From a virus (Duplodnaviria > Caudoviricetes): a stretch of DNA of 59,762 nt. The notes beneath the pieces are model-generated. The model saw only the letters and a list, made by a program, of their open reading frames with translations, had not been told where the DNA came from and searched no databases. The DNA lies in IMG/VR virus record IMGVR_UViG_3300033148_002141, positions 1-59,762 of that record; one strand, written 5' to 3'. Below are positions 7,652 through 53,573 of this stretch, piece after piece. The stretch's first letter is position 1; every line of letters starts with the position of its first letter. A program made the translations under genes and the position numbers.

Positions 7652-7864
7652 ATGTTGGTTCTGGCACGGAAGCAAGGCGAAGTGATCCGAATCGGTGACG
7701 ACATTCGCGTAATGGTCGTATCCACTGGGCGCCAACAGGTGAAACTCGGAATCACCGCTCCCGAACACGTCGTGATTCTGCGTGAGGAAATCGCCGGCGA
7801 ATCCAGCCCCGCAGGGGAGCGCAGGAAGCGCAACGCATTGGACGCAGAAGGGGACGGGCACTGA
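7652..7864 (+). CDS. csrA: carbon storage regulator CsrA/RsmA
   Basis: MLVLARKQGEVIRIGDDIRVMVV...VKLGITAPEHVVILREEI is the canonical CsrA signature including the RNA-binding Arg in ILREE. Confidence 0.93.
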   Translation: MLVLARKQGEVIRIGDDIRVMVVSTGRQQVKLGITAPEHVVILREEIAGESSPAGERRKRNALDAEGDGH

Positions 7865-7904
7865 TTGCAGCGGGGTTGGGTCTATTACACGGGAGGCATA
7901 AACC

Positions 7905-8378
7905 GTGAAACGGAAACGACGAAAACGAACCAGCGCGAACGTGCCGGCGAAAGGTCGCCTGCGCGACATCGCTGACAGGCTGTGGGCCCTGGCTGTACGC
8001 GAGGATTGGCTATGTCGATGTGCCGTGTGTGGGCGCCGCAAAACTGAATCTCACCACATGGTGCCCCGGCAGCATTACGCTACGCGGTATCTCTTGGAAA
8101 ACGGCATCGCCTTGTGTTCAACCCATCATCAATTTGACCCCAATATCAGCCCGCACCAAAACGCGGCCGGCTGGATGGCGTGGATGAAGGAGCATCATCC
8201 CTTTCGGGCGCAATGGTATCTCGAAAACTGTTGCCCACAATTCGACGGCATCACGAACGCCGCATACTACATCGAGCAGATTCAACGATTGCGGGAGTAC
8301 GTCGATCCGGATGACTTCGTTCGCATAGTCGGCGTTCGGTTTGCGGCTTACCTGGACGAATTACGCGAGAGAACGTGA
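7905..8378 (+). CDS. HNH / NinG-like nuclease
   Basis: CAVCG...SHHMVPR...RY..ENGIALCSTHH. Confidence 0.75.
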   Translation: MKRKRRKRTSANVPAKGRLRDIADRLWALAVREDWLCRCAVCGRRKTESHHMVPRQHYATRYLLENGIALCSTHHQFDPNISPHQNAAGWMAWMKEHHPFRAQWYLENCCPQFDGITNAAYYIEQIQRLREYVDPDDFVRIVGVRFAAYLDELRERT

Positions 8379-8381
8379 ACC

Positions 8382-8621
8382 ATGAGTGAGATCCCAGTAT
8401 ACTACGCGGTGTTGTTTCGCTCGCATACTAAACGCGAAGGCAAACAGCAACATCTAGTCCACGAGAATTTTGTGCCGGTGCTATTTCCGACGCGCAAAGA
8501 GGCGACTGCGTACATCAAAGCCGAGTACGGTCTTCTCGCCAAACGCTCGGAATTGCGTAAAGAACCGTATGGGTGGCGAATGCCGATTCCCGTGCGTGTT
8601 CATGTTGAACTTGCTGAATAA
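8382..8621 (+). CDS. hypothetical protein
   Basis: Tightly packed ORF in operon. Confidence 0.6.
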   Translation: MSEIPVYYAVLFRSHTKREGKQQHLVHENFVPVLFPTRKEATAYIKAEYGLLAKRSELRKEPYGWRMPIPVRVHVELAE

Positions 8622-8627
8622 ACCACC

Positions 8628-9404
8628 ATGAATGATTTATCCCATCTATCACGCGAAGCATACGGTCATTTCCAAGAAGCCAATCACTTCCACGGCCAGG
8701 TGACCAAGCATGTCGGCGATGCAGTTGACTGCGCTCTACGGACCGGCCGGGCATTGCTGGCCGCGAAGAAGGCCGTGCCACATGGACGGTGGACAGCCGA
8801 ATGTGAGCGGCTCTTTCACGGCAGCGCCCGTACAGCCCGGTTCTACATGGAGTTCGCCAAACGGGTATCCGCCATTCCGCAATGGCAATCAGCCGCAATG
8901 ACCTTGCTCGAAGGAAGCCTGAAGGGTGCCGCCGAAGCCGCCAAACTTGTAGCCACGCAATCGCCGGCTGCATTGACACCGCCTATAGTGGGGGACGGCG
9001 AAATAGAGCCGGACACATCACCCGTGTCTGAAGCATCCCCGGAAACGCCCCCAGAATCGCCTGTGACGCGACCTTCCGAGAGCCGGCCCGACACACCACC
9101 CCCGCCTCCAAAGCCCGCCAGAGAGGCGCCTGAGGCCGATTACGGCAAATGTCCGAATTGCCTGAGTGCAGAGTGGGACGAAGACGAGTTTGGCGTCTCG
9201 TGTGCCAAGTGCCACCACCCTTGGGGGGAGCCGGCTGGCGATCCCGATGAAGATCGGGTGAAGATTCAGCGGTTGAAGACGATCAAAACCGTGGAGGCAA
9301 CAATGCGGGCGTTCGATGATTTGCAGTATTTGCAGGCCCGAGCTTGGCACAACGACGCAATTCGCCAGTGCAAAGCATTGTTGAAAATGGCCCAAGAGTG
9401 GTAG
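8628..9404 (+). CDS. DUF3102-like phage protein with Pro-rich linker and Zn ribbon
   Basis: ALRTGRALLAAKKAVPHGRW...SARTARFYM; CPNC...CAKC. Confidence 0.65.
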   Translation: MNDLSHLSREAYGHFQEANHFHGQVTKHVGDAVDCALRTGRALLAAKKAVPHGRWTAECERLFHGSARTARFYMEFAKRVSAIPQWQSAAMTLLEGSLKGAAEAAKLVATQSPAALTPPIVGDGEIEPDTSPVSEASPETPPESPVTRPSESRPDTPPPPPKPAREAPEADYGKCPNCLSAEWDEDEFGVSCAKCHHPWGEPAGDPDEDRVKIQRLKTIKTVEATMRAFDDLQYLQARAWHNDAIRQCKALLKMAQEW

Positions 9405-9406
9405 CC

Positions 9407-11002
9407 ATGGCCCAACAGGTAGAACTTCCCAGCTTGTACCCTCATCAAGAGGAGCAAAAGGACCGGCTCCGGGCCGCCCTGGCTGTGCACCGGCGGGCCA
9501 TTCTTTGCGCCCAAACGGGAGTCGGGAAAACCCGAGTATCGAAATGGATTCTCGGGGCATGTTTGAATCGGCCAGCTGGCGAACGAGCCAGCGGGCGATA
9601 CCTGTGGTGTGTTCACCGCCGGGGCCTGGTCGATAACGCCATCGCCTCATTCCAGGAAGAACCCGCCCTGCCCCACGGTGTAATCATGTCCGGCGAACCG
9701 ACGGCCTACGGGCGGAAAATACAGGTTGCGTCCATTGATTCCCTCTTGGCATGGTTCATTGATGAGAACGGTTACCGTACCGACATCACGTTCGACCTGG
9801 CCGTCATCGACGAAACCCACAGTCACCTGCAAAAATTCGCCCGATTCCTGAAATACCACGACGCCCAACGTGAAGCGATGGGCTTGCATCCCGCCTACGT
9901 AATCGGCCTGACGGCAACGCCGCAAGCCAAGGGGCTGGCGGACATCTACGGCACAATCGTCAAGGGGCAATCCACCCAGTGGCTGATCGACAATGGCTAC
10001 CTATGCCCCTTCCGCTATTTCGGAGCCACCCAAGGCAAGCTCGGTCTGCTCGTCAAGCGGGGCGGGGAGTTCACCAAGGCGTCTGAATCCGCCGCGATGG
10101 AATCTCTGGCTGGAAACCTTGTGGAGGATTGGAAGCGATTCGGCGAAGGGCGTCCGACTGTCGGGTTCTTTCCCCGACGCTCCCATGCCCGGGACGCCAT
10201 GCGGGCCTTTGCCGAGGCCGGATTGCGAGTGGAATACGTCGATGGGAATACGCCGGATGATGAACGCCGCCGCATCTTTCGTTGGCTGAATGAGCATCGA
10301 ATCGACTACCTCTGCAATGTCCAAGTGGTTGAACGAGGGACCGACATTCCCCGCATCGCCTGTATTCAGTTGTGTGTCGCTACCGCGTCTGTTGTCCGGT
10401 GCCGCCAGATGATCGGCCGAGGGAGCCGAGTCCATCCCGACAAGACGGATACTGTCATCATAGACCACGGCGGGAATATCGCCCGCTGCGGATTCTTCGA
10501 GGACGACCCCGATTGGACGCTCGACATCACCACGAAAGACCCGGGGGAAGCCAAGGCCCGGCCCACGATCGAATGTCCCAAGTGCCAGGCGATCTATCGG
10601 GGTGGGCGGTGCCGGAATTGCGGCTACGAACCCACCCCTGCTGAACGACGTGCGAGAGGGCTCCAATTCGATGGCTCGGCCCTGCGTGAACTCACCCCAG
10701 AGAAGCCGAAACCTGTTCGATCCGCCGAAGAATTGATGGTCAAGGCGCTCTACATGGCTGGAAGATCAGGCCGGACGTGGCGGCAGTGTTGCGGCATATT
10801 CCGGGGCATGAATCAGAGGCAGGGAACCAATTATCGCGTCCCCTCGATTGTCACCATAGGCGGACGCCGCTACAGAATGATTCGGTACGGCTCCCCCGAT
10901 GCCAACCGGCGGGTGTCGGCCGTGTATCCATTCACTCGCCGTAGAGGTGAGCATGGCGGCGAATACCTGATCGACGAACCTGTTGCAGCCGCGCCTTATT
11001 GA
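9407..11002 (+). CDS. SF2 (RadD/YejH-like) DNA helicase with C-terminal Zn finger
   Basis: Walker A AQTGVGKT, DETH, GLTATP, QMIGRGSR, CPKC..CRNC. Confidence 0.9.
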   Translation: MAQQVELPSLYPHQEEQKDRLRAALAVHRRAILCAQTGVGKTRVSKWILGACLNRPAGERASGRYLWCVHRRGLVDNAIASFQEEPALPHGVIMSGEPTAYGRKIQVASIDSLLAWFIDENGYRTDITFDLAVIDETHSHLQKFARFLKYHDAQREAMGLHPAYVIGLTATPQAKGLADIYGTIVKGQSTQWLIDNGYLCPFRYFGATQGKLGLLVKRGGEFTKASESAAMESLAGNLVEDWKRFGEGRPTVGFFPRRSHARDAMRAFAEAGLRVEYVDGNTPDDERRRIFRWLNEHRIDYLCNVQVVERGTDIPRIACIQLCVATASVVRCRQMIGRGSRVHPDKTDTVIIDHGGNIARCGFFEDDPDWTLDITTKDPGEAKARPTIECPKCQAIYRGGRCRNCGYEPTPAERRARGLQFDGSALRELTPEKPKPVRSAEELMVKALYMAGRSGRTWRQCCGIFRGMNQRQGTNYRVPSIVTIGGRRYRMIRYGSPDANRRVSAVYPFTRRRGEHGGEYLIDEPVAAAPY

Positions 11003-11659: not shown

Positions 11660-11670
11660 GGAAGCCACAC

Positions 11671-12243
11671 ATGCTCACCCTAAACGAGATTCTCGCCCAA
11701 TTACATGTGTGTAGCGAAGCCCGCCAGTGGGCCGCCACACAACCGGACGCCCGAACGGCATGGTGCAATTGCCCGCGCGGCGACTGGCTGCTACGGGGGG
11801 CGGTCATGCTTGGCATTGAGCACAAGACAATCATTGCCGCAGCTTGTGATTGCGCGGAGCTTGCTTTGCCTTATGTCGCTAAAGGCGAAGATCGTCCGCA
11901 GAAGACCGTCGATATAATACGCGCATGGCTTGTAGGCGAAGCGACACTGGATGAGGTGCGTACTGCCGCCCGGGCTGCCGACGCCGCCTGGGCCGCCTGG
12001 GCCGCCGAAACTCCCGCCGCCGCCCGGGCCGCCCGGGCCGCTGCCGCCGCCGCCCGGGCCGCCTGGGCCGCCGAAGCCGCTACTGCCGCCCCTGCCTCCG
12101 CTGCTGCCGCCGCCTGGATCGTCGCTACCGCTCGGGCCGACGCTAGAAGCGGCACGCTCAAGCAATGCGCCGACATCGTACGTTCGCGCATAACTTGGGA
12201 GCATATTGCCGAAGCGGTGAACCAAAAGTGCCTGACTCATTAG
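11671..12243 (+). CDS. Imm5-like, Ala-rich helical repeat protein (paralog 1)
   Basis: N-cap LHVCSEARQW...CPRGDWL; ACDCAE.AL..DRP....RAWL.GEATLDE; Ala-rich repeats; KQCADIVR C-cap. Confidence 0.75.
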   Translation: MLTLNEILAQLHVCSEARQWAATQPDARTAWCNCPRGDWLLRGAVMLGIEHKTIIAAACDCAELALPYVAKGEDRPQKTVDIIRAWLVGEATLDEVRTAARAADAAWAAWAAETPAAARAARAAAAAARAAWAAEAATAAPASAAAAAWIVATARADARSGTLKQCADIVRSRITWEHIAEAVNQKCLTH

Positions 12244-12254
12244 GAATCGCTCAC

Positions 12255-12824
12255 ATGCTCACCCTAAACGAGATTCTCGACCAATTACATGTGTGTAGCG
12301 AAGCCCGCCAGTGGGCCGCCACACAACCGGACGCCCGAACGGCGTGGTGCAATTGCCCGCGCGGTGATCGGTTGATTTGGCTGGCGGGTATGCTCGGCAT
12401 TGATCGCAAGACAATTGCTGCCGCAGTTTGTGATTGCGTCGAATTGGCGTTGCCATTCGTGATTAAACACAACGAGCGCCCACGGAACGCCATCACTGTG
12501 ACGCGGGCGCGGCTTGCAGGCGAGGCAACACTGGAGGATTTACGGGCCGCCGCCGCTGCCGCCGACGATGCCGCCGACGCTGCCTGGGCCAAAGCCGCCT
12601 GGGCCGACGCTGCCTGGGCCAAAGCCGCCTCGGCCGCCGCCGCTGCCGCCGAAGACGTCACCTGGACCGCCGCCTCGGCTACTGCCGCCGTTGCCTGGAC
12701 CGTTGCCGCCGCTCCGGCTGATGCTAGAAGCGACGTACTTAAGCAATGCGCTGACATCGTGCGGTCGCGAATCACGTGGGAGCAGATTGCAGACGGAATT
12801 GAGAACACCTTTCCTTCAGCCTGA
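12255..12824 (+). CDS. Imm5-like, Ala-rich helical repeat protein (paralog 2)
   Basis: First ~110 nt nearly identical to the 11671 gene; 30-nt internal tandem repeat at 12573-12631. Confidence 0.75.
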   Translation: MLTLNEILDQLHVCSEARQWAATQPDARTAWCNCPRGDRLIWLAGMLGIDRKTIAAAVCDCVELALPFVIKHNERPRNAITVTRARLAGEATLEDLRAAAAAADDAADAAWAKAAWADAAWAKAASAAAAAAEDVTWTAASATAAVAWTVAAAPADARSDVLKQCADIVRSRITWEQIADGIENTFPSA

Positions 12825-13166: not shown

Positions 13167-13925
13167 ATGTGCAATTTTTTGAGTGCCATTGTTATCAAGC
13201 CGAAACCCGGCGATTCGCCCGAGGTCTATTGCGATCCGGAACATACGGATTCGCATGAAGACCTAATCGCCAATCGGGGGTTGGCCGACAACGGCCGGGG
13301 AGGATTCGTGCGGGTCGAGCTAACGTTATCCAGCCTCGACTATGCCGACCTGGAAGCCTACACGTTGCGGATCGACTGCCTGCACAGGCCCGAATGGTTC
13401 GACGAACAAGCCGGCGCGCGAGTCGAACATATCCTCCGTGGGTGCATCAAGCGAATGCTCGTGGACGATCAGCGCGATATGTTATTGGGGGGCTGCTGGA
13501 TTTTACACAACGCGGCCCATATTAAGCGAGTACACAACGCTCGAATCGTGGCCATGCAAGATTCGGCACGCATCGGCGAAGTGCGTGGCGTGGCTTGGAT
13601 CGACAGGATGCTGGATTCCGCTCGGATCGAGAGGATGCTGGACTCGACTCGAATTGGCGCGATGTGGGATTCGGCGCGGGTAGACAGGATGCTGGGCTCG
13701 GCGCGGGTCGATAGGATGTTGCACTTGGCTCAGGTCGGTGAGATGTGGGGCTCGGCGCGGGTCCGCGAGATGCTGGACTCGGCGCGGATCGGCGAGATGT
13801 GGGACTCGACTCGGATCGACAGGATGCGTGACTTAACTCGGATCGACAGGATGCTGGATTCGGCTCGGGTCGTTGCCATGCACAATTCAGCGCGCATAGC
13901 AAACTATCGCCCTTGGCGCGGGTAG
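13167..13925 (+). CDS. beta-helix-like protein with 9-aa repeats (MLDSARIDR)
   Basis: AAGGAG SD; N-domain MCNFLSAIV...DSHEDLI...VRVE; ~13 nonamer repeats. Confidence 0.75.
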   Translation: MCNFLSAIVIKPKPGDSPEVYCDPEHTDSHEDLIANRGLADNGRGGFVRVELTLSSLDYADLEAYTLRIDCLHRPEWFDEQAGARVEHILRGCIKRMLVDDQRDMLLGGCWILHNAAHIKRVHNARIVAMQDSARIGEVRGVAWIDRMLDSARIERMLDSTRIGAMWDSARVDRMLGSARVDRMLHLAQVGEMWGSARVREMLDSARIGEMWDSTRIDRMRDLTRIDRMLDSARVVAMHNSARIANYRPWRG

Positions 13926-14288: not shown

Positions 14289-14594
14289 ATGCCTGAATTG
14301 CCTATTGATCCCCCCATCCGCGATTACGAGGAACGCGAAGCCGAAATCGAGGCCGAGGAAGAGGACGCTTATCGCCGCGCTGATTGGGCGTACCACGAGG
14401 AATGCAAGGCGGAAGACCCGCCGTCCTATTCGGCGCTTCGCCAAGCGCTCACCTTGGCTGCGGACCTTAACGGCCGGATTGCCTATGGAGCCGCACCGAC
14501 GGCCCAGCCGGAACGATATGGATATTACATCGACGGCGAATACTGCGGCCCGGATTTGAGAAACGCTCTACTACGAGCAGCGAAAAACACGTGA
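14289..14594 (+). CDS. hypothetical protein, C-terminal paralog of 15179-15403
   Basis: GGAGG SD; ALTLAA...RIAYGAAP...ERYGYYIDGEYCGPDL shared. Confidence 0.7.
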   Translation: MPELPIDPPIRDYEEREAEIEAEEEDAYRRADWAYHEECKAEDPPSYSALRQALTLAADLNGRIAYGAAPTAQPERYGYYIDGEYCGPDLRNALLRAAKNT

Positions 14595-14629
14595 TGGGTG
14601 ACTTTGCCCACTTCAAGAAGGAGAACCCA

Positions 14630-15163
14630 ATGGCAACCGTAACGAAGAGTACGATCGAGGACGTCCTAAGTACACACGTGGCATGGCTGCGAGGGAGTCC
14701 CCATGGAGTAATGGCCGATTTGCGAAACGCCGATCTGCCAAACGTCGATCTGCGAACCGCCGATCTGCAAAGTGCCGATCTGCGAAACGCCGATCTGCAA
14801 GGAGCCGATTTGCAAACCGCCGATTTGCATAATGCCGATGTGCGATTCACCGATCTGCACAATGCTGATCTGCGAAACGCCGATTTGCATAATGCTGATC
14901 TGCGAAACGCCAACCTACGACGCGCCGCTCTACGCAACGCCAACCTGCAACACGCCGATCTGCAACACGCTGATCTGCGAAACGCCGATCTGCAACACGC
15001 CGATCTGCGAAACGCCACTTTGCAAGGCGCTAATTTGCAAGATGCAGATCTGCGGTTTGCAGATTTGACAAGGACGTCCCTGTGTGGCGCGAACTTCGAT
15101 GGGGCGATAATTATGTATCGTGGTCATGTGGTACGGATTCAATTTCATGTCGTGGATGCCTGA
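14630..15163 (+). CDS. pentapeptide repeat protein (A[D/N]Lxx)
   Basis: H..WL.G...G..ADL N-cap followed by >20 ADLRN/ADLQH repeats. Confidence 0.92.
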   Translation: MATVTKSTIEDVLSTHVAWLRGSPHGVMADLRNADLPNVDLRTADLQSADLRNADLQGADLQTADLHNADVRFTDLHNADLRNADLHNADLRNANLRRAALRNANLQHADLQHADLRNADLQHADLRNATLQGANLQDADLRFADLTRTSLCGANFDGAIIMYRGHVVRIQFHVVDA

Positions 15164-15178: not shown

Positions 15179-15403
15179 ATGTCCAAGACGATAGACATCT
15201 GCTGTCGTAGGCTGGCACAACGCAATAAGGAGCTTCGCCGAGCGCTCACCTTGGCTGCGGAACTCATCGCTCGGCCAGAGCGGATTGCCTACGGAGCCGC
15301 GCCAATACGCCACGCGGAACGATACGGATACTACATCGACGGCGAATACTGCGGCCCGGATTTGAAGGAAGCCCTGTTAAGGGCAACAACAGACACCCGA
15401 TGA
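15179..15403 (+). CDS. hypothetical protein, paralog of 14289-14594
   Basis: Shared C-terminal ~45 aa; overlaps the MTase start (ATGA). Confidence 0.7.
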   Translation: MSKTIDICCRRLAQRNKELRRALTLAAELIARPERIAYGAAPIRHAERYGYYIDGEYCGPDLKEALLRATTDTR

Positions 15404-16341
15404 AGATCAAAGCCATTGCCCCCTGGTTCGGTGCGAAGCGGACGATCGTGAAGCGAATCGTCGAGGAGATCGGACGTCCCAAGGCGTTCTGGGATTCGAT
15501 GGCCGGTTCACTGTCCGTGACTCTGGCGATGGAGCCGTGCCAGATGGAAACGGTCAACGACCTGCATGGCGACGTAATCAATCTGGGCCGGGTGCTGGCA
15601 TCGGACGCTTGCAAAGACCTGTATGCCCGACTTCAACGCACGCTTATGTGTGATGAACTGTTTTTGGAAGCGAAGGCGATTTGTTGCGAGACGCCATGTG
15701 ACGTGGCCCCGTCGATCCGCGAAGTCAAGCCTTCGCATGTGGAGCGGGCCTTCTACTACATGATTCTCTCTTGGCAGGGCCGCAACGGCGCGGCGGGGAC
15801 CGGCCCGGGAAACCTCACGCCAGTTAGGCGATACACGAGCAACGGTGGTCCGAGCGGCCGGCGGTGGCTCTCGGCTGTCGAGTCCATACCGGCGTGGCAT
15901 CAGCGCTTGCGCGCGGTGGACTTCATGAATGTGGATGCGTTCGATTTGCTGGATCGAGTCGAGGACAAGCAGGGCACCGTGGTGTACAACGACCCGCCCT
16001 ACATCCGCAAGGGGGCGAAGTACGTCTACGATTTTGTCCAGGAGGTATCAATCGAAGAGGCGTTGGCGGATGGTGGCGGTGAGAAAGAAGGCAAACGGAA
16101 CGATCACGTCCGCCTGGCGATTCATCTTCGGCGGTTTCGCAAAACGCGCGTGATCGTGAGTTACTACGACGAACCGGAATTGGACTTGCTCTATCCGGGG
16201 TGGACGAAGCGGCGGCTGGACGTGACGAAAAGCCTAGTTAATCAAGGTATGCGGGATCGGCGTGGCCAGATCGTGAAGACGCCGGAAGTCCTGCTAATTA
16301 ACGGCCCTAGCTACGTGGCCGAACGCTTATTGTTCGATTGA
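15400..16341 (+). CDS. Dam-like (D12 class) DNA N6-adenine methyltransferase
   Basis: PWFGAK, AGSLSV, ETVNDL..DVIN, DPPY. Confidence 0.9.
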   Translation: MKIKAIAPWFGAKRTIVKRIVEEIGRPKAFWDSMAGSLSVTLAMEPCQMETVNDLHGDVINLGRVLASDACKDLYARLQRTLMCDELFLEAKAICCETPCDVAPSIREVKPSHVERAFYYMILSWQGRNGAAGTGPGNLTPVRRYTSNGGPSGRRWLSAVESIPAWHQRLRAVDFMNVDAFDLLDRVEDKQGTVVYNDPPYIRKGAKYVYDFVQEVSIEEALADGGGEKEGKRNDHVRLAIHLRRFRKTRVIVSYYDEPELDLLYPGWTKRRLDVTKSLVNQGMRDRRGQIVKTPEVLLINGPSYVAERLLFD

Positions 16342-19940: not shown

Positions 19941-20609
19941 ATGAAGCTTTACAAGCTCACCGATGAATACGGGCAAACGCATGGCGGTTGCCAATGGGGA
20001 GAAGGTATCGAACATACGGCCAGTGGCGAGGGCCCCCTCTGCCATTCGGGTTGGCTACACGCCTACACGCACCCGCTGCTGGCTGTATTCATGAATCCGA
20101 TCCACGCGAACTTCGAGCGACCACGATTGTGGGAGGCCGACGGGGACGTGGGCATATCCGATGGTAACCTGAAAGTGGGGTGCACGCGACTAAAGACGCT
20201 GCGGGAATTGCCGGTGCCCGAGGTCACGCGCGAGCAGCGGATTCGATTTGCGATAGCCTGCGCATTGCAGGTCTGGGATGACGCGACGTTTCGCAATTGG
20301 GCTTTGGCTTGGCTTGATGGTAGCGATAGATCGGACAATGCGGCCCTGGCGGCGTCGGAGACGGCGCGGGCGAAGGCGGCGTGGGCGAAGGCGGCAAAGG
20401 CGGCAGCGTGGTCGGCGTGGTCGGCATGGTCGGCGTGGGTGGCGGAGGCGGCAGCGTGCGCGGTGAATGCGGTAGCAGAGATAGCGGCGAAGACGGGTGC
20501 GAATATCCCATTCACCGCAATCGCCGAATGGGCGGTCACTGACGAACCGATTCAAGCGCTGGAAGTGACACTTGGGGATACGAGTGATGTCGCTACATCC
20601 CGTAAGTGA
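19941..20609 (+). CDS. phage protein: N-terminal GWLHAY/RLWEA domain + Ala-rich Imm5-like helices
   Basis: AGGAG SD; RFAIACA...WALAWLDG..Ala-rich repeats. Confidence 0.7.
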   Translation: MKLYKLTDEYGQTHGGCQWGEGIEHTASGEGPLCHSGWLHAYTHPLLAVFMNPIHANFERPRLWEADGDVGISDGNLKVGCTRLKTLRELPVPEVTREQRIRFAIACALQVWDDATFRNWALAWLDGSDRSDNAALAASETARAKAAWAKAAKAAAWSAWSAWSAWVAEAAACAVNAVAEIAAKTGANIPFTAIAEWAVTDEPIQALEVTLGDTSDVATSRK

Positions 20610-20679
20610 ACCGATATGATATTGGGCGGCTACCGCCGGCAGTTCATTCAGATGTCCACAATAACAGGAGGCCAACGAG

Positions 20680-20841
20680 ATGTTTCGTTCACTGGCTGTA
20701 ATCGTAATGTGCGCAATTGTCCTGTGGCTGACCTGGACGGCCAGCCAACAACCGCAAGAACCGCGAGAGGGCATCAGGCAAGACGCCGAGCGATTCGTCT
20801 CGCCAATAACAGAAAGGGTAGAGCGATGGCAGAATCGTTGA
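20680..20841 (+). CDS. small membrane protein
   Basis: AGGAGG SD; MFRSLAVIVMCAIVLWLTW (not in the ORF track, read manually). Confidence 0.5.
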   Translation: MFRSLAVIVMCAIVLWLTWTASQQPQEPREGIRQDAERFVSPITERVERWQNR

Positions 20842-20930
20842 TTGCGACTGTGCTGTTCGGCGCGTTTTCGATCGGATGGGCCGTGTGGCTGTTCGTTTAC
20901 ACCGGCCGATTGCATCGCGAGCCGGAATGA
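20826..20930 (+). CDS. small single-TM protein
   Basis: MAESLIATVLFGAFSIGWAVWLFVY. Confidence 0.45.
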   Translation: MAESLIATVLFGAFSIGWAVWLFVYTGRLHREPE

Positions 20931-21059
20931 CGGCAAGGACCGTATCGTGCGAATATTCGAATAGAAGTTTGTGCGAAGCGCGTGGTGGCCGTCTCGCTAC
21001 GTCCAATCTACGCGCGGGGAAAATGCTGTCCGCGCCGCGGCCTGGAAAGAATCAAAACC

Positions 21060-21275
21060 ATGAAGATCACACGCGAATGCCCGACATGCGGGCATAAGTA
21101 TGAAGTCGAGGCGTGTCCGGAATGTGGCGGCACAGGATACGTCCGAAAGCCAAAGAAGACTTTCACCGGCATTCTCCCTGAGCGCCACGTTCCCTGCGCA
21201 GCCTGTGGTGGCACTGGCGAAAAGGATTTCGTATGGCTCAAACAGTTGCTATCGTCGGTGGAGACACAAACATGA
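21060..21275 (+). CDS. DnaJ-type CxxCxGxG zinc-finger protein
   Basis: CPECGGTG...CAACGGTG. Confidence 0.7.
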   Translation: MKITRECPTCGHKYEVEACPECGGTGYVRKPKKTFTGILPERHVPCAACGGTGEKDFVWLKQLLSSVETQT

Positions 21276-21523
21276 CATTCGATCCCACAACCGAAACCAA
21301 AGAAGAGTTCATGGCCCGCTACCAGGCTGGTACCCCCGCGATGCCCGACATATTTCTGCGGCACTTAATCGCATTGCCTTGCGACTGCGAGGATGGCGGC
21401 GGCCCGACGCATTGGGCTGCCGTGTCTCGTGATCCATTGCACATTCAACAGCATTTGGAGTTGTACGCACCGTCCGGGACGCCTTGGCCGGCAGACATCG
21501 AACAACCCGATTCTCAGGTATGA
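21272..21523 (+). CDS. hypothetical protein
   Basis: ATGA overlap; ALPCDCEDGG..HWA. Confidence 0.6.
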   Translation: MTFDPTTETKEEFMARYQAGTPAMPDIFLRHLIALPCDCEDGGGPTHWAAVSRDPLHIQQHLELYAPSGTPWPADIEQPDSQV

Positions 21524-21598
21524 GTGGCGCCAGCTATACCTGGGAATCCCGTCGCGGCAGATGCTCGAACCGGAGGACTCGCAGCGGAGCACCGAAAC

Positions 21599-22291: not shown

Positions 22292-22371
22292 GGACGTTTC
22301 CTGACACGAGGCCGGAAGATTGGCGCGAGCCGGCCGGCGGAAGTATTACTCCAACCATTCGAGGAAAAGCC

Positions 22372-22782
22372 ATGACTTACTCATCCCCGCTTACCTACAG
22401 ACAGCGAAGCGACCTTATGCGACTGGCTGAACGCATACGCAGGGGGGAATGGGACCACGAAACTCTGTGCCGCTTGTCCGACGCCATTCCCATCTTGGTG
22501 ACTGACATCGACGCATTGCTGGCCCTACAATCCTGTGGCCACCCGGTACAATGCCTTACTGGCGGTGAAGACGAGCCGGACGAAGGCGGAACCCGATTCT
22601 GCGCGATGTGTCGGCTGGAAGCCGAGGTACGGAACTTACGCAAGCACAGAGACGTAACGCGAGGGCTGGTGCGCTTGTGCCGAGAATTGGACGCGGAACT
22701 CGATGGAGTCCGCCTACCCGCAACGGCCGCCGCCATCACCTGCGGTATCCGCACCCTTCTGAATCGGCTGGAGGACGAATGA
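22372..22782 (+). CDS. hypothetical protein with CGHP...CAMC motif
   Basis: GAGGA SD; operon context. Confidence 0.6.
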   Translation: MTYSSPLTYRQRSDLMRLAERIRRGEWDHETLCRLSDAIPILVTDIDALLALQSCGHPVQCLTGGEDEPDEGGTRFCAMCRLEAEVRNLRKHRDVTRGLVRLCRELDAELDGVRLPATAAAITCGIRTLLNRLEDE

Positions 22783-23126: not shown

Positions 23127-23186
23127 GAATTACCCCCCCCAACTATGCCCTAATACGGTCGCAGAAAGACCGTGGAATGGTGATTT

Positions 23187-23420: not shown

Positions 23421-23444
23421 TCCTCCAATTCCGTGACAGCTTCC

Positions 23445-23473
23445 TTGACGGCTCTTTATCCTCAGGCTAAATT
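23445..23473 (+). promoter_or_regulatory. sigma70-like promoter
   Basis: TTGACG (23445-50), 17-nt spacer, TAAATT (23468-73). Confidence 0.7.
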
Positions 23474-23479
23474 AGTGGA

Positions 23480-23910
23480 TGTGACTATCACTCGTCCCGT
23501 GTTAACTTGTGGTCCACTGTCATGTGTGCGGTTCTTGGACTGCTGAGAGGCGGAGATTGGAATACCCCTCCGAAAGCCGGAGGAAGGCCGCCACGGTACG
23601 GAAGGACGGACCGGAGCAGGCATGGAGACCGCCAGGGGTCACAAGTGGCACGGGCGAATATGGCCGACCGCAATCATTGCGGTAACGACAGGCCAACTCG
23701 GCATAGCTGGAGGGACACATACTCCGCGGCCCCGCCGATCGCTGAGGCGACAAGAGGGTCGAGTGGGTACTCAACCAACCCAAGCGAATCCGGTAAGACC
23801 GTTTCCGGGGAGACTATCCCGGCGCAGATTGGTTGCGGCGAAACCCTGACTCGTCGTTAGGTACACCCACCGAGGATGGGGCCGTTCGTTCGGCCGTGCG
23901 AACCTCGTTA
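23480..23910 (+). ncRNA. candidate large structured non-coding RNA of unknown family
   Basis: No credible ORF; long helix 23492-23515/23635-23657, nested helices and hairpins, 10 GGA motifs in 23537-23626; upstream promoter. Confidence 0.65.
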
Positions 23911-23969
23911 AATATGCGGAGCGGGTGGGGGGAATTGCGCGTGTAGCACAAACTCCAGGAGAATTGCGA

Positions 23970-24224
23970 ATGGGCTTTGCACCATCATACGACCGCTGGT
24001 TGGAAAAGCACCGTCACGAGGTACGTGCTTTCAAGGAATGCGAGCGCTGCCAAGGACGCCGCTTTGGTGACTGTTCGCCTCAGTGCAGGTATTTCTGGGA
24101 AACAGCCTCAGACGCCGAAGAGGAGGCTGCCTGTCGTGCTTCCGAGGATGTGAAGCCGCTGCCTGGGAAGAAGACGTACTACGACGCTTACCCGACGGCC
24201 CCCGAGAGGATTAGCCAGGGTTGA
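23970..24224 (+). CDS. small Cys-containing hypothetical protein
   Basis: AGGAG SD; CERC...CSPQC. Confidence 0.55.
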   Translation: MGFAPSYDRWLEKHRHEVRAFKECERCQGRRFGDCSPQCRYFWETASDAEEEAACRASEDVKPLPGKKTYYDAYPTAPERISQG

Positions 24225-25562: not shown

Positions 25563-25575
25563 GTCGCCCTCCCGA

Positions 25576-26140: not shown

Positions 26141-26231
26141 CAAAGAAACTGGGGCAGGATGGACAGACTTCGAGATCCCCGGTTGGAAGGATTCGGAATC
26201 ACTCTCCACCCGGGGGCGATTGGTGACAAGA

Positions 26232-47849: not shown

Positions 47850-49550
47850 TTATCCAAGCACGACGCCGGACGTATTCCGACGCCGCTGCTCGGCCTGAAT
47901 TGCCAACAAGTGGTCTGTCCATGCTTTGCTGTGCGTCGTTCGCCGGGGCGGCTCGACGTATCCCGGTCGGAACGCAGCCAAATACTCTGCACATTGTACG
48001 AGTTCATCACATCCGGGGAACTTCACTCGTTTCGTGCCGGTCTTGTGATCGTATTGCGCACGGCGAATCTGCCGTTCTAATTCGGGCATCTTGCCGCGAT
48101 GTATTTGCAGTATGGCCGTCCCTGCAAACGGGCCGATTTCCCGGACCGTCATCCACGACAGCAGTGCTTCCTCCCTACCCAGAATGTCGTCGCTGCCGGG
48201 AAAAAAGCCCGCCATGGGACCTTGCCGCCTGGGTAGGAAGTCCACGAGTTTCAGGGCTTCCCAATAATGCTGCGCCGTTGTTCGATCGTCTTTCGCGCCC
48301 ACAGCGACTTGCCGGCCCATTCGCTGGTCCATCACGATGGCTTCCAATTGGTGTCCGCCATGCCGCTCTTTCAGCGCCCGAGCCCAGATCATGGCGTTCA
48401 CCCCGCCCTCCAGCATGTAAGCATCGTACACTTCGACGTACTTTTCGTCCGGGTCCACGGCGGCCAAGAGCGTGCCGGCCCATTGTCGTCCCGGGTCAAC
48501 CGCCGCATATCGACTGTAGTTCTCCGGAATGGCCCTCGGTTCGCAACCGTGAAGTCCCTGGGGATCGAATAGCCGGTCATAGACCCTTCGCCCGACGGCC
48601 CCGTACTCGCCGTGGAATTTGACCCGCCGAGCATCTTCATTCGGCAGATCGTCGTAAAACGCCTGCTTCTCGTCGGCGTCGATATACGGGTTGTCCATAA
48701 TCAAGAACGTGAATCGCTGTACGCGAGGGTCGCCGGCCAACGCCCGGTCTCGCAATTCGATCAGGTACGGATTGGCGTGTTCCGGACATGCGGAACAGAC
48801 GCCCTTCCCGTGTACGTCCACGAATCCGCGCGCCATCTCGCTCTGAAACAATTCGTTCCCGATATGCTCGTCGATCCACCCGTAATGGTATACGTCCCCT
48901 TGTGGCGGATTGGCCGAGCCACCAGCCGACCGCCACAATGAGCGCCAACCGGTCGTGCGGAATCGGATCAACCGCGGCTCGCGCTTGCCGAAGTCCTCGT
49001 ATTTGACCTCGACCAGGTGCGGTGGAATCAGCGGTGGAGCATCCCGCCACTTCTCCTTGTAGGCCAGATCGTACGGGTCCAATTCCACTGGATTGTCCGG
49101 ATTCGGCCGGACGGCACGCCACTTGCCCGAATGTTCGTCCTGAATGATCTTGAATGCGCCCGGTTCACTCAATTTGCGCCACATCGTCTGCGATAGATGA
49201 TCGGCACTCAAACCCACCACCAGACTATTGCCGTTATATCGCGGGAACTTGTCGTAAGGATCACACCCCAAATGGGCCCGGGCGTACTCCACTGCGGCAC
49301 TAAGCGTTTTGCCGCTCCTGTTCGACCCGTCTGCCAACCGCCATCGGGCTGAACACGCATGAAACGCCGCTCCCACCGGCAGCGGCCTGAACAAGACCAG
49401 TGCTTCCATCCGCTTCTTCACCAGCTTGGCCAGCACCCGGCGCAAGCGCTCGGTCTGCGGAGACGGCACCGTGCCGCCGTTCCGGGAATGAGGGCGCACC
49501 GATTCGCCTCGCAATTCCCGCTCCAGCGCTTCTCGATCGAAATCAATCAT
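47850..49550 (-). CDS. terL: terminase large subunit
   Basis: Walker A GSNRSGKT, Walker B GWIDE, DNPYI, RNase H-like AVDPG, late DELVQCAEY. Confidence 0.88.
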   Translation of the reverse strand: MIDFDREALERELRGESVRPHSRNGGTVPSPQTERLRRVLAKLVKKRMEALVLFRPLPVGAAFHACSARWRLADGSNRSGKTLSAAVEYARAHLGCDPYDKFPRYNGNSLVVGLSADHLSQTMWRKLSEPGAFKIIQDEHSGKWRAVRPNPDNPVELDPYDLAYKEKWRDAPPLIPPHLVEVKYEDFGKREPRLIRFRTTGWRSLWRSAGGSANPPQGDVYHYGWIDEHIGNELFQSEMARGFVDVHGKGVCSACPEHANPYLIELRDRALAGDPRVQRFTFLIMDNPYIDADEKQAFYDDLPNEDARRVKFHGEYGAVGRRVYDRLFDPQGLHGCEPRAIPENYSRYAAVDPGRQWAGTLLAAVDPDEKYVEVYDAYMLEGGVNAMIWARALKERHGGHQLEAIVMDQRMGRQVAVGAKDDRTTAQHYWEALKLVDFLPRRQGPMAGFFPGSDDILGREEALLSWMTVREIGPFAGTAILQIHRGKMPELERQIRRAQYDHKTGTKRVKFPGCDELVQCAEYLAAFRPGYVEPPRRTTHSKAWTDHLLAIQAEQRRRNTSGVVLG

Positions 49551-49833
49551 CGGCTTGTAGCAGTGCCTTGGCTTCCGCTTCCAGCGCTTCGATGTCGTCC
49601 GGCAAATCGTCATCTTCGGGCTCAGAAGTGACGTTGATGATCTTTAGAATCTCGATCATCAACCGCACCCGATTCTGCTCGTTCTTCGCGGTCCTTTGCA
49701 GCCGGGTGACTTCCTTCCCCAATTCCTCCAGCCCGTCGTATTCTTCGATAATCGAAGCTACCAGCGGCCGAATGTCGATGCGGCGCTCGAGCCCTTTGCG
49801 CAGCTCCCGTATTGTGTCGATCTCGTCAGCCAT
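49543..49833 (-). CDS. putative terminase small subunit
   Basis: Small helical protein overlapping the TerL start; positional inference only. Confidence 0.4.
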   Translation of the reverse strand: MADEIDTIRELRKGLERRIDIRPLVASIIEEYDGLEELGKEVTRLQRTAKNEQNRVRLMIEILKIINVTSEPEDDDLPDDIEALEAEAKALLQADD

Positions 49834-51575: not shown

Positions 51576-51605
51576 AATGCGCTCTCTGCAAAGTGGTGAT
51601 AATAT

Positions 51606-51651
51606 CGGGCCGCCCGACCCGCTGTCGCCAGCAGGCGGCCAGGCGGCCCGG
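51606..51651 (-). terminator. long GC stem-loop after the capsid/decoration genes
   Basis: CGGGCCGCC...GGCGGCCCG arms with inner pairing; no strong U-tract. Confidence 0.5.
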
Positions 51652-51662
51652 TAGGGGGTACG

Positions 51663-52286
51663 TCAAGCCTGAACTCCGGTTTGGAGACCAAAGTGGACGT
51701 TCACCAATTCAGCGGTGACCTCGGAGGTCGTACCGTCCTTCAAATAGGTTGCAACGACCGTATCGGCGGCAGCCGCCTTGCCATTGCGCCCGGCACCTGC
51801 CATCTGCACGGCATCACCTGCGCTTCCTGCGGCAACACCGGTCTGCCCCTCCACCAGACACGGACCCGCTTCCACTACGTAGAACAGATCGTACTGGGCG
51901 ATGGTGGTTTCCAATCCGCCTTGCGACGTGTCTTCCGTGCCGTAGTAATAGGCGTCGTCCATCGGCTTACAGGGTTCGCCGCCGGTGCCCGCTACGCCAT
52001 CAACACGGCGTCCCCAATCGCCAGGCGTGGTGGCCGCATTGCTCAACCGGAACGACAGCCACTTTCTGGCTACAGCCAAATCACCGCCGCTGTCATTCTT
52101 TACCACCCGCAAGATGACCGGAATACCGGTGTTGTGGATGGTATCTTTCACCTGGTACAACTTCCCTTCCAGATTGGACGCCGGCCCACTATCGCTGAGG
52201 GTCACCAGACTGTTGGCTCCCCTTTTCGCGTCCGAATACGTGCTGCCACGCGGGAAAGGAAGCGCCTTTTCGATAATCGCACTCAT
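51663..52286 (-). CDS. putative capsid decoration/cement protein
   Basis: AAGGAGG SD, immediately after the MCP, Gly/Ala-rich beta protein. Confidence 0.6.
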   Translation of the reverse strand: MSAIIEKALPFPRGSTYSDAKRGANSLVTLSDSGPASNLEGKLYQVKDTIHNTGIPVILRVVKNDSGGDLAVARKWLSFRLSNAATTPGDWGRRVDGVAGTGGEPCKPMDDAYYYGTEDTSQGGLETTIAQYDLFYVVEAGPCLVEGQTGVAAGSAGDAVQMAGAGRNGKAAAADTVVATYLKDGTTSEVTAELVNVHFGLQTGVQA

Positions 52287-52300
52287 ATTAGCCCTCCTTT

Positions 52301-53365
52301 CTAGCTAATGCTGCGCAGGCAAGGGAAGAACGCCGGCGTCTCGAATCGCATGTTGCAGTACGTCCGCAACACGATCATGTCCGTCAGCGTCGTTATGTCC
52401 TCGTCAGTCTTCTTGCCAACCACCTGCCCGAGCATGTTGCGGAATTCGATGTGGTCCTTCGACAGACCGTAGGCAACATTCGGGGTGCAGTAGTGATCCG
52501 CAATCAACTCACTGCCGTTGTGACTGAGACCTCGGAACCCGAGCTTTAATAGCTCCGGAATCTGAGAGATTTCGATTCGCTCCTTGTCGTGCAAGGACAG
52601 CCGGCATAGCCGCAGCATTTCGGGCGTCATAACCCACACGTCCGGAACGATCCCGTGCAGCGATTCGACGTGCGTTTCCGCCCAATCCATTGCTTCACGC
52701 CACGTATACTGCCAGGTCTTCGTGGTGGCAGACCATCCCGAATTGGTGTAATCGGCCACGATGGGCGAATTGAAGAAATACTCCAAGGAGCCAGTCCCGT
52801 TGGGCCATGTGCCGTCAAACTTGCCGGCCCCGTAATAATTCAGGACCATGCTCAGGCCGGCATACGTTCCGGCTGGTACTCCCGCGACCCCAGATGCCGC
52901 GCTGATGTCGGAGTACATCGTCTCCAACCCATCCATGTGGTCTTCCTCGGTCGAATCGCCATCCTTGAATATCTCGGAGCAGAGATGCTTGTTGAAATCG
53001 CGCGATAGCGCATCGAGCGCCGCCTTGACAAGATTGAACAAGGCCAGCTTGTTGTCTTGCTGAACGAGTTGTTCAAATTCGCTAATCGATTCGCCCTCGC
53101 GCCAATGGTGCCACTTCACGCTGGCTTCGCGCCATCGGTTACGTCTCGGCGGTGAATAGCTGTCCATGTCGTCGGCGTATTCAGGAGTCGCTTCTTTGTA
53201 CTCCACACGCCAATTGACAGAGGGGCCGCCCTGGTTATAGGTGATTGCACCCCAGGAATCGAGAAGCCCCATTACCCGCTTGTGGCGGTCGCCGGGTTTG
53301 GTCAGCTTCTTGATCTCCTTGTCGATCGTACTGACACTTACCCGTGCACTAGATGAGACAGGCAT
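52301..53365 (-). CDS. major capsid protein
   Basis: 354 aa after the scaffold; GG..V.W.V.Y, IFKDG...HMDGL, YAGL, PD..VMT motifs. Confidence 0.78.
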   Translation of the reverse strand: MPVSSSARVSVSTIDKEIKKLTKPGDRHKRVMGLLDSWGAITYNQGGPSVNWRVEYKEATPEYADDMDSYSPPRRNRWREASVKWHHWREGESISEFEQLVQQDNKLALFNLVKAALDALSRDFNKHLCSEIFKDGDSTEEDHMDGLETMYSDISAASGVAGVPAGTYAGLSMVLNYYGAGKFDGTWPNGTGSLEYFFNSPIVADYTNSGWSATTKTWQYTWREAMDWAETHVESLHGIVPDVWVMTPEMLRLCRLSLHDKERIEISQIPELLKLGFRGLSHNGSELIADHYCTPNVAYGLSKDHIEFRNMLGQVVGKKTDEDITTLTDMIVLRTYCNMRFETPAFFPCLRSIS

Positions 53366-53573
53366 ATGACTCTCCACAAAGTGAACTTATCCGATTTGCC
53401 AAGCGAAGGGTTTATGGGCACGCTGGCATGGTGCGTTGTGGAGAAGGGCCGCGAGAAGGGTGTGGGCGTAATGCGGGAACTAGGGCGGGGTCTTCCCCGA
53501 AGGAAGAGTTGGCCGCCCCGCGTTCCCGCGCACCAGCCGCCCCCTTCTCCTTTAGCGACTGGTGTGTATCCAA
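53366..53573 (-). promoter_or_regulatory. structured 5' leader of the major capsid gene with alternative SD-pairing
   Basis: Hairpin 53564-53531, branched UUCG hairpin 53529-53473, anti-SD 53448-53436 complementary to both the SD region and the hairpin loop. Confidence 0.6.

Follow-up and report, generated by a model that had tools for sequence, protein, structure and literature searches.

The 59,762-bp window analysed here, which is the complete IMG/VR virus record IMGVR_UViG_3300033148_002141 (estimated to be ~89% complete, 58% G+C), carries a csrA gene, an RNA domain dense in GGA triplets and a structured leader ahead of the major capsid protein (MCP) gene. The original prediction had joined these three features into a self-contained circuit, in which early phage CsrA holds capsid translation off until the GGA-rich RNA titrates it. 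The reading that we favour, and to which we give about an even chance, is that the three features are real and probably do not form one circuit: the capsid leader would work as an RNA-only riboregulator, and the GGA-dense domain would act in cis. Structure modelling and comparison with three further loci suggest that the leader is a conserved translational riboregulator that sequesters the Shine-Dalgarno (SD) sequence of the MCP gene.

The capsid gene leader

The elements of the head-gene transcript are as follows.

52301..53365, minus strand: MCP gene (phrog_9953 major head protein, E = 2 × 10−12; homologues 45-49% identical)
53366..53573, minus strand: MCP leader, 208 nt, from the stop codon of the scaffold-like gene (53576-53574) to the MCP start codon
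53531..53564, minus strand: P1 hairpin, stem CACCAGUCGC / GCGGCUGGUG, loop UAAAGGAGAAGGGG (SD mimic, 'anti-anti-SD')
53473..53529, minus strand: P2, a long G+C-rich hairpin
53436..53460, minus strand: two CCCUUCUC repeats (53460-53453 and 53448-53441), the second extending to CCCUUCUCCACAA
53370..53380, minus strand: MCP SD region UUUGUGGAGAG, predicted to be paired, with P(unpaired) of 0.00-0.07 over its core
53574..54551, minus strand: scaffold-like gene directly upstream of the MCP gene, 325 aa from the ATG at 54551 (longest frame from the TTG at 54632)
54576..54647, minus strand: three CCCUYCUYC motifs (54647-54636, 54616-54609 and 54583-54576) in the leader of the scaffold-like gene
54666..54695, minus strand: sigma-70-like promoter TTGTCC-18-TATAAT (10/12), ahead of the scaffold-like and capsid genes; consensus match only

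The start codon of the MCP gene (ATG at 53365) was confirmed by the N-termini of homologues. The protein encoded directly upstream has no Pfam or PHROG match; its putative scaffold role is assigned from the position of the gene, and its likely start codon from reading of the sequence. The MCP leader folds better than its shuffles (z = −3.16) and can form P1 with AAGGAG in the loop, in agreement with the original prediction, which had placed an AAGGA in the loop of a capsid-leader hairpin. The P1 loop, UAAAGGAGAAGGGG, is complementary over 8-9 nt to CCCUUCUC(C) at 53460-53453 and 53448-53440, and the second repeat, CCCUUCUCCACAA, is predicted to pair with the MCP SD region; the leader also holds a further CCCUUC. 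P1 is not preferred at equilibrium in the window (−92.7 kcal/mol for the preferred fold vs. −89.7 kcal/mol with P1 forced), the preferred fold having the P1 loop paired with the first CCCUUCUC copy. The P1-closed and P1-open folds are close in energy, which is what a switch would need.

In the mechanism suggested by these folds, the MCP SD would be locked in a helix with the upstream anti-SD CCCUUCUCCACAA, and the SD mimic of P1, GGAGAAGGG, could pair with the anti-SD repeats instead. RNA-RNA competition between nearly isoenergetic folds would then set capsid output from the scaffold-capsid transcript, and its outcome may hinge on folding during transcription or a further factor.

A search of 5.8 billion proteins recovered five MCP homologues, at 45-49% identity, and a search with the MCP alignment yielded upstream DNA only from two short metagenome contigs (L002 and L003) and none from viral or genome contigs. 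Both contigs have the same element order as the window, with GGAGGG in the loop, repeats of the CCCUCC type and GGAGGA as the SD. The probability of P1 is 0.5 in L002 and 0.92 in L003, and the SD core is predicted to be mostly paired in all three loci (P(unpaired) of 0.00 in the window, 0.00-0.31 in L002 and 0.06-0.20 in L003). The RNAalifold consensus of the window, L002 and L003 comprises P1, P2 and the anti-SD:SD helix, with 92.5% of cells paired. Changes on both sides of a pair were counted for 10 pairs, compared to 3.9 in column shuffles (0 of 500 reached the observed count) and 0-2 when partners were slid by 1-3 columns. Compensated pairs account for 4 of 10 in the SD helix (helix 4) and 4 of 14 in P2. 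We regard the covariation count as supportive of the predicted structure, not as conclusive. A 16-nt block, CGGCUGGUGCGCGGGA, which runs from the 3' arm of P1 into the 5' arm of P2, is invariant in the three loci, at an MCP identity between the window and L002/L003 of only 45-46%. An exact search for this block in viral contigs gave 34 matches, none of them with the leader context or an MCP gene.

Three larger records, G001-G003 (47.7 kb, 41.8 kb and 49.3 kb, and 70%, 61% and 100% complete, respectively), were reached via the 236-aa protein of a small leftward gene cassette of the window and via the family of a small Cys-rich protein, and all three carry a CsrA domain. The identity of G001 to the window is 71% for the helicase, 52% for csrA, 43% for the terminase, 35% for the portal and 28% for the MCP; G001 is a genuine, though distant, relative and the closest whole-genome relative reached. 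Upstream of the G001 MCP gene, directly after a scaffold-like gene, lies a similar leader with a P1 of 11-14 bp (stem AUUGCCGGCGG / CUGCUGGUAAU, with GUGGAGGG at the tip), a P2 hairpin, four (U)CCUCCAC-type repeats and an SD region that is paired in the minimum free energy (MFE) structure. The G001 leader was the sole other match, a marginal one, of a covariance model of the window, L002 and L003 in the 352 kb searched.

Comparison of the four loci shows that the loop and the repeats shift together, from GGAGAAGGG / CCCUUCUCC in the window to GGAGGG / CCCUCC in L002 and L003 and GUGGAGGG / CCUCCAC in G001, and that the P1 loop is complementary to the repeats in every case (over 8-9, 7, 6 and 8 nt for the window, L002, L003 and G001, respectively). 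Since the loop and repeats of the window depart from the canonical SD and anti-SD, this pattern points to direct pairing between loop and repeats and not to two independent matches to 16S rRNA. The anti-SD/anti-anti-SD reading of the capsid leader has thus held up, with conservation and compensatory changes in three further loci.

The repeat motif is not confined to the MCP leader. CCCTTCTC occurs 6 times in the window compared to 1.87 expected (0 of 100 shuffles reached 6), and the leader of the scaffold-like gene carries two copies of CCCTTCTC plus one CCCUCCUUCUCC; in G001, CCUCCAC is found at the equivalent place in the leader of the scaffold-like gene. The presence of the motif in this second leader in both the window and G001 makes it a feature of the whole head-gene transcript. 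This distribution also bears on a different reading of the leader, namely that P1-P2 is an operator for another phage protein, for instance an autogenous one such as the scaffold-like or capsid protein, or that the C/U-rich repeats are S1-type enhancers of highly expressed head genes. Such a role would account for the identity of the 16-nt P1-P2 block in the window, L002 and L003 at so low an MCP identity, and for the threefold occurrence of the CCCUUCUC motif in the scaffold-like leader, where the SD mimic is absent. However, the G001 leader does not keep the block and has covarying stems instead, Pfam and PHROG searches of the neighbouring proteins gave no candidate RNA-binding domain, and the compensatory changes between repeats and SD are not predicted by an enhancer role. 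We therefore consider an operator or enhancer quite unlikely. Translational coupling through a terminating ribosome is likewise disfavoured, given that the distance from the stop codon to P1 (9, 8 and 17 nt in the window, L002 and L003, respectively) is too variable.

No second copy of the P1-P2 block was found in the window, and Rfam searches over 53200-54800 gave only chance-level matches at E ≤ 5. No Rfam family covers the capsid leader, which is a structured RNA not described before. The conservation of this leader over MCPs down to 28% identity makes it of interest independently of the CsrA question, and it probably sets the ratio of capsid to scaffold translation, a general problem of virion assembly.

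The phage CsrA and its possible targets

Two features at the left end of the window concern the regulator itself.

7652..7864, plus strand: csrA, 70 aa, between the genes for a 5'-3' exonuclease and an HNH protein in the recombination/replication module
4787..4814, plus strand: sigma-70-like promoter TTGACA-16-TATATT (11/12), ahead of the rightward csrA operon; consensus match only

The original prediction of an intact csrA is borne out by three comparisons. The product scored 73.1 bits against the Pfam CsrA profile (PF02599; cut-off 27, E = 1.7 × 10−20), with residues 1-48 on profile positions 1-48 of 53, it also matched phrog_9500 ('CsrA-like regulator'), and its residues 1-48 align to solved RsmE/CsrA chains. 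In the alignment to one of these, RsmE 2jpp, which reads MLVLARK... and ...HVVILREEIA, R44, E45, E46 and I47 are identical and H43 is replaced by L. Mutagenesis has assigned RNA contacts in CsrA to L2, L4 and R6 and to the strand V40-x-V/I42-x-R44-E-E-I47, and the residues regarded as RNA-contacting are kept in the phage protein in this alignment. Judged from its sequence, the gene encodes a bona fide translational regulator of the CsrA/RsmA family, here carried by a phage. It belongs, as an ordinary member, to a class already known from phages: the protein is matched by 81 GenBank phage records at 40-55% identity, and its best bacterial CsrA matches are scattered over phyla (11 genome loci). 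Expression of the gene is probably early, as part of the rightward recombination/replication operon, a timing suggested by its place in that operon; the promoter at 4787..4814 would be the one that drives it.

In G003, a complete 49-kb phage genome with terminal repeats, the CsrA domain lies inside a 226-aa open frame; at 6500-6993 of the corresponding locus, L058, the domain carries a C-terminal extension of ~110 aa, which gives an open reading frame (ORF) of ~164 aa from the ATG. Upstream of this CsrA-fusion gene, a hairpin module of the form GTCCGTG...CACGGGCCGGCATTTTT with a T-run at its end is present in four similar versions (5340-5975), in a 1-kb non-coding stretch and around a small ORF; the modules look like a repeated terminator-like or small RNA-like element.

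Many phage RsmA/CsrA homologues in GenBank and IMG/VR are described, with repression of CRISPR-Cas as a suggested function, in the available part of Campa et al. (2021, PMC8450108), and the corresponding part of Sobrero and Valverde (2020, PMC7366521) gives csrA in 30 of 2,517 phage genomes (~1%). Full-text literature searches turned up neither a CsrA sponge encoded by a phage nor a defined target of a phage CsrA, which is not proof of absence; the available parts of the two papers establish no function or target for any phage CsrA, and a full-text phrase search confined the discussion of phage CsrA to PMC8450108.

The leader of the window holds one GGA in the P1 loop, UAAAGGAGAAGGGG, and another in the SD, GUGGAGAG. 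GGAG is itself the SD core, so the GGA of the loop cannot tell CsrA binding from SD mimicry, and the fuller A(N)GGA occurs in one of the four leaders (AAGGA in the window, compared to CUGGA in L002 and L003 and GUGGA in G001). In the equilibrium ensemble of the window, the GGA of the P1 loop is paired (P(unpaired) of 0.00-0.01). The distance from the P1 loop to the SD is ~170 nt in the window; a CsrA dimer bridges sites that are closer than this.

CsrA could nevertheless act on the scaffold-capsid leader through the GGA of the P1 loop and/or the SD, with the 23.5-kb RNA unrelated and with the block relieved by dilution or turnover, by sponge RNAs of the host or by an increase in mRNA. The joint presence of csrA and the leader in the window and in G001, where the MCP is only 28% identical, is consistent with this, as are the GGA in every P1 loop, the pentaloop GUGGA in G001 and the additional GGA that L002 and L003 have near the apex of P2, ~45-50 nt from the GGA of the P1 loop. 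Conversely, the co-occurrence comes from two lineages only, and csrA is carried by G002 and G003 as well, in neither of which a homologous MCP or leader was found. The invariant block CGGCUGGUGCGCGGGA is not part of the loop and is not known to be involved in recognition by CsrA, and RNA-only switching suffices for the design of the leader. We consider this account unlikely. The models nonetheless leave the capsid leader as the best candidate so far for a target of the phage CsrA, yet one that appears workable without CsrA; binding of CsrA to the P1 loop or to the hairpin at 23.6 kb may occur and is not required by the evidence. Two clonable RNAs follow as candidates for a phage CsrA target, the 34-nt P1 in the 208-nt leader and a 20-nt GAAGGA hairpin in the 171-nt domain described below.

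The GGA-dense RNA domain at 23.5 kb

The second candidate lies in the following region.

23421..23969, plus strand: gene-free intercistronic gap, 549 nt, between a 77-aa gene (23187-23420) and an 84-aa Cys-rich gene
23445..23473, plus strand: promoter-like hexamers TTGACG-17-TAAATT, a possible own start of the RNA; consensus match only
23490..23660, plus strand: folded RNA domain, 171 nt, with a long closing helix round a three-way junction; holds the GGA tract
23537..23626, plus strand: GGA-dense tract, 10 GGA in 90 nt
23594..23613, plus strand: hairpin CGGUACG-GAAGGA-CGGACCG, hexaloop at 23601-23606
23970..24224, plus strand: 84-aa Cys-rich protein gene, motif ECxRCQGRxxGDCSxxCRY, SD AGGAGA; last gene of the rightward block

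The tract at 23537-23626 contains exactly 10 GGA and 1 TCC, compared to a window mean of 1.58 GGA per 90 nt, which bears out the originally predicted count of 10 against an expectation of 1-2. This is the maximum of the window over both strands, the next peak being a coding one with 8 GGA (13769-13864). The tract itself is purine-rich (36 G and 24 A in 90 nt), and correction for this composition raises the expectation to a mean of 3.8 GGA in mononucleotide shuffles of the 90-mer (P(≥10) = 2.5 × 10−4) and 5.6 GGA in dinucleotide shuffles (P(≥10) = 0.002); in a first-order Markov simulation of the whole window, 10 GGA were reached in 2 of 300 runs. The GGA excess is real, though partly due to the G/A-rich local composition. 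A coding origin was rejected, as six-frame codon-usage scores were ≤0 across 22800-24400, including the ORFs at 23507-23860, 23509-23685 and 23622-23849 and three minus-strand ORFs.

The 171-nt domain (23490-23660) folds with an MFE of −76.1 kcal/mol (z = −3.76; 0 of 200 shuffles as stable) and is closed by a helix of ~25 bp, whereas the gap as a whole, folded over 504 nt, is no more stable than its shuffles (z = 0.0). In the Boltzmann ensemble, only one of the 10 GGAs of the tract is fully unpaired, two (23537 and 23559) are partly unpaired, and the remaining seven contain one or more G that is paired at P ≥ 0.9; the picture is unchanged between the 171-nt and 504-nt contexts. The fully unpaired GGA (23604-23606, with P(unpaired) of 1.00 at all three positions) is the best CsrA-type site in the tract. 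The predicted GGA loop of the original note was thus recovered as the hexaloop GAAGGA, and its caveat, that several GGAs are paired, proved stronger than had been stated. No repeat of the domain turned up elsewhere in the window.

Three observations on the flanking sequence stand beside these. The TCC-densest stretch of the window, 23372-23470 (7 in 90 nt, equivalent to GGA on the minus strand), lies directly left of the GGA tract and overlaps the 3' end of the gene at 23187-23420. Together, the two form a mirror-like purine/pyrimidine arrangement round an A+T-richer centre at ~23460-23500. No pairing between the TCC stretch and the GGA tract was found in the predicted fold.

One explanation of the GGA cluster is that it is a by-product in which GGA as such has no function. 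It would then be the purine-rich strand of a structured, G+C-rich spacer where the rightward early block meets the leftward cassette, and this spacer could be, for instance, a structure for RNase III-type processing or for stabilising a 3' end. The expectation of 3.8-5.6 GGA from local composition, the genome-wide purine skew of the sense strand, the location of most GGAs in stems, the ~25-bp closing helix, and the finding that comparable dense tracts elsewhere are coding or hairpin arms all agree with it. The count nevertheless exceeds that of dinucleotide shuffles and was reached in very few simulations, and the tract is unmatched in density among the non-coding gaps of four genomes. We consider a by-product of this kind unlikely.

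We further compared the domain with what would be expected of a Csr/Rsm-type sponge. Such RNAs hold their GGAs mostly in loops or linkers, and here one of 10 is fully exposed. No match to any Rfam 15 family, including CsrB, CsrC and RsmX/Y/Z, reached the gathering score in the whole window, and at E ≤ 10 the region 22900-24400 gave two chance-level matches, to unrelated families only. As a transcription unit, the RNA has the promoter-like TTGACG-17-TAAATT at 23445-23473 (two promoter-like sites in the 1.6-kb region compared to 0.5 expected) and no terminator-like site on the plus strand, an intrinsic terminator being absent from that strand throughout 22800-24400. The csrA-carrying records G001-G003 contain no sequence match to 23421-23969 (best 27 nt, E = 0.04) and no non-coding 90-nt window above 7 GGA, so that csrA and a GGA RNA co-occur in 0 of 3 relatives, two of which are only 61-70% complete. 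A search based on csrA reached nine other viral contigs (L038-L046) and 11 genome loci, all with csrA alone in common with the window; nothing like the GGA RNA was found in the nine viral contigs, and their non-coding GGA maxima are no higher than those of control contigs. An exact search with an 18-nt piece of the GGA hairpin gave 0 matches.

Peaks of similar density elsewhere have other origins. Windows with at least 9 GGA occur four times in ~530 kb of other loci (L045, L048, L002 and L037), the one in L002 being the pyrimidine repeats of its own capsid leader. The 10-GGA peak of L045 was rejected as a sponge, being a poly-Glu coding stretch, as were the 10-TCC peak of L048, which is the purine arm of a long hairpin that follows a gene, the 7-GGA peak of L058, in the C-terminal extension of the CsrA-fusion ORF, and the 9-GGA peaks of G001 and G002, inside a conserved ORF. 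In L048, a contig of a Planctomycetales metagenome-assembled genome, the extended hairpin (1345-1460, minus strand) has purine-rich and pyrimidine-rich arms and directly follows the gene; a chromosomal csrA is encoded ~800 nt away on the opposite strand. The conserved protein of G001 and G002 (38811-38928 and, on the minus strand, 8474-8591, respectively) is encoded between csrA and the helicase and combines a CPNC...GTKWD zinc-ribbon-like motif with an acidic Pro-rich linker, which gives the 9 GGA per 90 nt; a 258-aa ORF of the window (8628-9404) occupies the same position.

Pairing of the GGA RNA in trans with the capsid or scaffold leaders was rejected, the duplex scores being unexceptional: with the full-length RNA, the MCP leader ranks ~900-2050 of 2382 windows, and with 24-nt GGA segments it ranks 74-75 of 1990 (−31.2 vs. 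a mean of −25.2, standard deviation 3.2) and the scaffold leader 513 or lower, in scores that ignore intramolecular structure.

On these comparisons, the GGA-dense RNA is confined to this phage, as far as can be judged. It is a real, stable, orphan structured domain, and the case for a CsrB/Rsm-type sponge, as the original prediction had it, is weak, three of four testable properties of such an RNA having not been found. The RNA was not encountered without csrA in relatives, yet its being private to the phage removes comparative support for a sponge. More generally, a high density of GGA predicts a CsrA sponge poorly when neither loop exposure nor conservation accompanies it.

What the domain most likely contributes is a function in cis. 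It would be the core of the intercistronic leader of the mRNA of the Cys-rich gene, where its role would be in processing, stability or translation of that mRNA, and it would offer CsrA one good hairpin, the GAAGGA hexaloop, and not a multi-site sponge. The Cys-rich protein has 37 homologues at E ≤ 1 × 10−3 besides the window's own, with the motif ECxRCQGRxxGDCSxxCRY conserved; in two loci, L061 and L062, its gene is preceded by another ORF and has no long leader.

Of the original three-part circuit, then, the parts that stood are the csrA gene and the conserved SD-sequestering leader, both also present in G001, and the part that did not is the GGA RNA, which is not sponge-like. In its full form, early CsrA would hold the P1 loop, and perhaps the SD, so that the anti-anti-SD could not open the SD and the anti-SD repeats would keep it shut; the GGA RNA would build up later, titrate CsrA and free capsid translation. 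All three elements exist, and several facts fit this scheme: the strong promoter-like site in the csrA operon, the GGA tract as the densest of the window with its GAAGGA hexaloop hairpin, the GGA kept in all four P1 loops with csrA and leader co-occurring in G001, the position of the GGA RNA 16 kb past csrA in the same rightward direction of transcription, and the sigma-70-like promoter right before the head genes, given which a post-transcriptional delay would make sense. What speaks against the scheme is the single loop-exposed GGA and the missing Csr/Rsm Rfam match and terminator, the lack of a homologous or equally GGA-dense non-coding RNA in all three csrA-carrying records and of elevated non-coding maxima in L038-L046, a loop GGA that is inherent to an SD mimic and set in A(N)GGA in a single leader, and a spacing between P1 loop and SD beyond the reach of a CsrA dimer. 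We hold the full circuit to be very unlikely, and the chance is equally slim that CsrA serves as the trans factor of the head-gene riboregulator in the clade of the window and G001 with the GGA RNA as its later antagonist in this phage. If true, a virus-encoded regulator, target and antagonist would constitute a post-transcriptional early/late timer, and the leader would be the first defined target of any phage CsrA.

The favoured reading, of an RNA-only leader and a cis-acting GGA domain, has to be set against several observations that count against it. The covariation comes from three sequences, two of which are mutually close, whose alignment also served to derive the structure that was scored; the covariance-model match to the G001 leader is marginal (15.9 bits, E = 0.11). 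With 2-4 repeat copies per leader, one P1 mimic cannot occupy all of them. csrA and the leader are found together in both whole-contig lineages, as a link between CsrA and the leader predicts, and GGA is kept in all four P1 loops, the MFE structure of G001 placing it in the 5-nt loop GUGGA. The GGA excess of the 23.5-kb domain survives local dinucleotide correction (P = 0.002), and a cis-structural role leaves it unexplained. Finally, structure prediction may understate the number of accessible GGAs, and CsrA can remodel RNA.

Genome context and relation to known systems

The rightward genes of the window span ~4.9-32.2 kb and the leftward genes 59.7-32.4 kb, with a small leftward cassette at 24.2-26.0 kb. 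Further assigned genes are the following.

5314-6084, rightward block: Rad52-like annealing protein
6451-7638, rightward block: 5'-3' exonuclease
7905-8378, rightward block: HNH protein
9344-11002, rightward block: helicase
15400-16341, rightward block: D12 methyltransferase
26819-29344, later part of the rightward block: tail-fibre-like protein
47850-49613, leftward block: large terminase
55372-56436, leftward block: radical-SAM protein
57481-58323, leftward block: serine recombinase

The leftward block also contains a weak portal match and tail-fibre-like proteins, and most proteins of the window lack a family match. No tRNA or tmRNA was found in the window. Neither the DNA at 20001-28000 nor the MCP protein had a match in GenBank phages, and single-protein searches of viral contigs with the 841-aa tail-fibre protein and the MCP recovered no close relative. 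By these comparisons, the phage appears to be a member of an uncharacterised lineage. A replication origin or skew switch at 23.4 kb was rejected, as the skew tracks gene orientation only, the sense strand being purine-skewed genome-wide.

The leftward cassette (24211-26022, minus strand) comprises three genes of 236, 219 and 148 aa inside the rightward block. Homologues of the 236-aa protein are 49-57% identical in two other viral contigs, and all three proteins match more weakly in a third viral contig; none of them belongs to a Pfam or PHROG family. A 403-aa TnpB-like protein (Pfam Cas12f1-like TNB domain, E = 5.7 × 10−23; OrfB_IS605, E = 2.7 × 10−9) is encoded at 3091-4302 on the minus strand, opposite to its neighbours, and for such a gene a guide (omega) RNA is expected at or beyond the 3' end, here near 2900-3100. 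Copies of a 54-nt inverted repeat (83% complementary), which contains the hairpin AAAATGGCAACGCGGTGCCATTTT, lie at 5237-5290 and 59674-59727, near the starts of the rightward and leftward blocks, each oriented along its own block; the left copy scored as terminator-like, and the repeat may be a shared operator, terminator or attenuator of both arms. Repeat-rich gene families occur at 1-2742, 11668-12824, 14591-15163 and 21524-22291. Repeats with a 15-nt period (pentapeptide type) occupy 37-1035 and 1663-2742, and the gene at 14591-15163 clearly encodes a pentapeptide-repeat protein (Pfam E = 7.7 × 10−40); three Gly-rich paralogous genes share 300-nt segments that are 66-79% identical.

Comparison of the three features with known systems shows likeness of different degrees. 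The csrA product resembles other phage CsrA/RsmA homologues in being a small CsrA-domain protein with 48 conserved N-terminal residues, and differs in that its lineage is uncharacterised and its gene lies in a recombination/replication module. The Pseudomonas RsmQ is likewise a CsrA-family regulator carried by a mobile element, but one that is plasmid-borne and reportedly acts on host behaviour, and the available part of its description (PMC9928087) mentions no element-encoded sponge or self-target.

The GGA-dense RNA shares with CsrB, CsrC, RsmX, RsmY and RsmZ its 10 GGA in 90 nt, one of them in a short hairpin loop, and a promoter-like site upstream, and the GGA density of RsmY and RsmZ is similar. 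In contrast to those RNAs, its GGAs lie mostly in stems, it has neither an Rfam match nor a terminator, and it is part of an mRNA leader, not a free-standing gene, and is not conserved together with csrA.

Among mRNA leaders that serve as CsrA targets or decoys are those of glgC and hcnA and the fim leader decoy of Salmonella. The capsid leader is like these in combining a hairpin-loop GGA and an SD GGA in one mRNA, whereas its sites are ~170 nt apart in the window and A(N)GGA is found in one of four homologous loops. Classical SD-sequestering leaders with an anti-anti-SD are those of RNA-phage coat/replicase control and of ribosomal-protein operons. As in these, the SD of the window leader is predicted to be locked by an upstream complement, with a second, SD-like competitor and near-isoenergetic folds. 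It differs from them in that it has no Rfam family, that it has 2-4 copies of the anti-SD, which turns up again in the neighbouring gene's leader, and that its SD mimic sits in a conserved hairpin loop that is followed by a long second hairpin.

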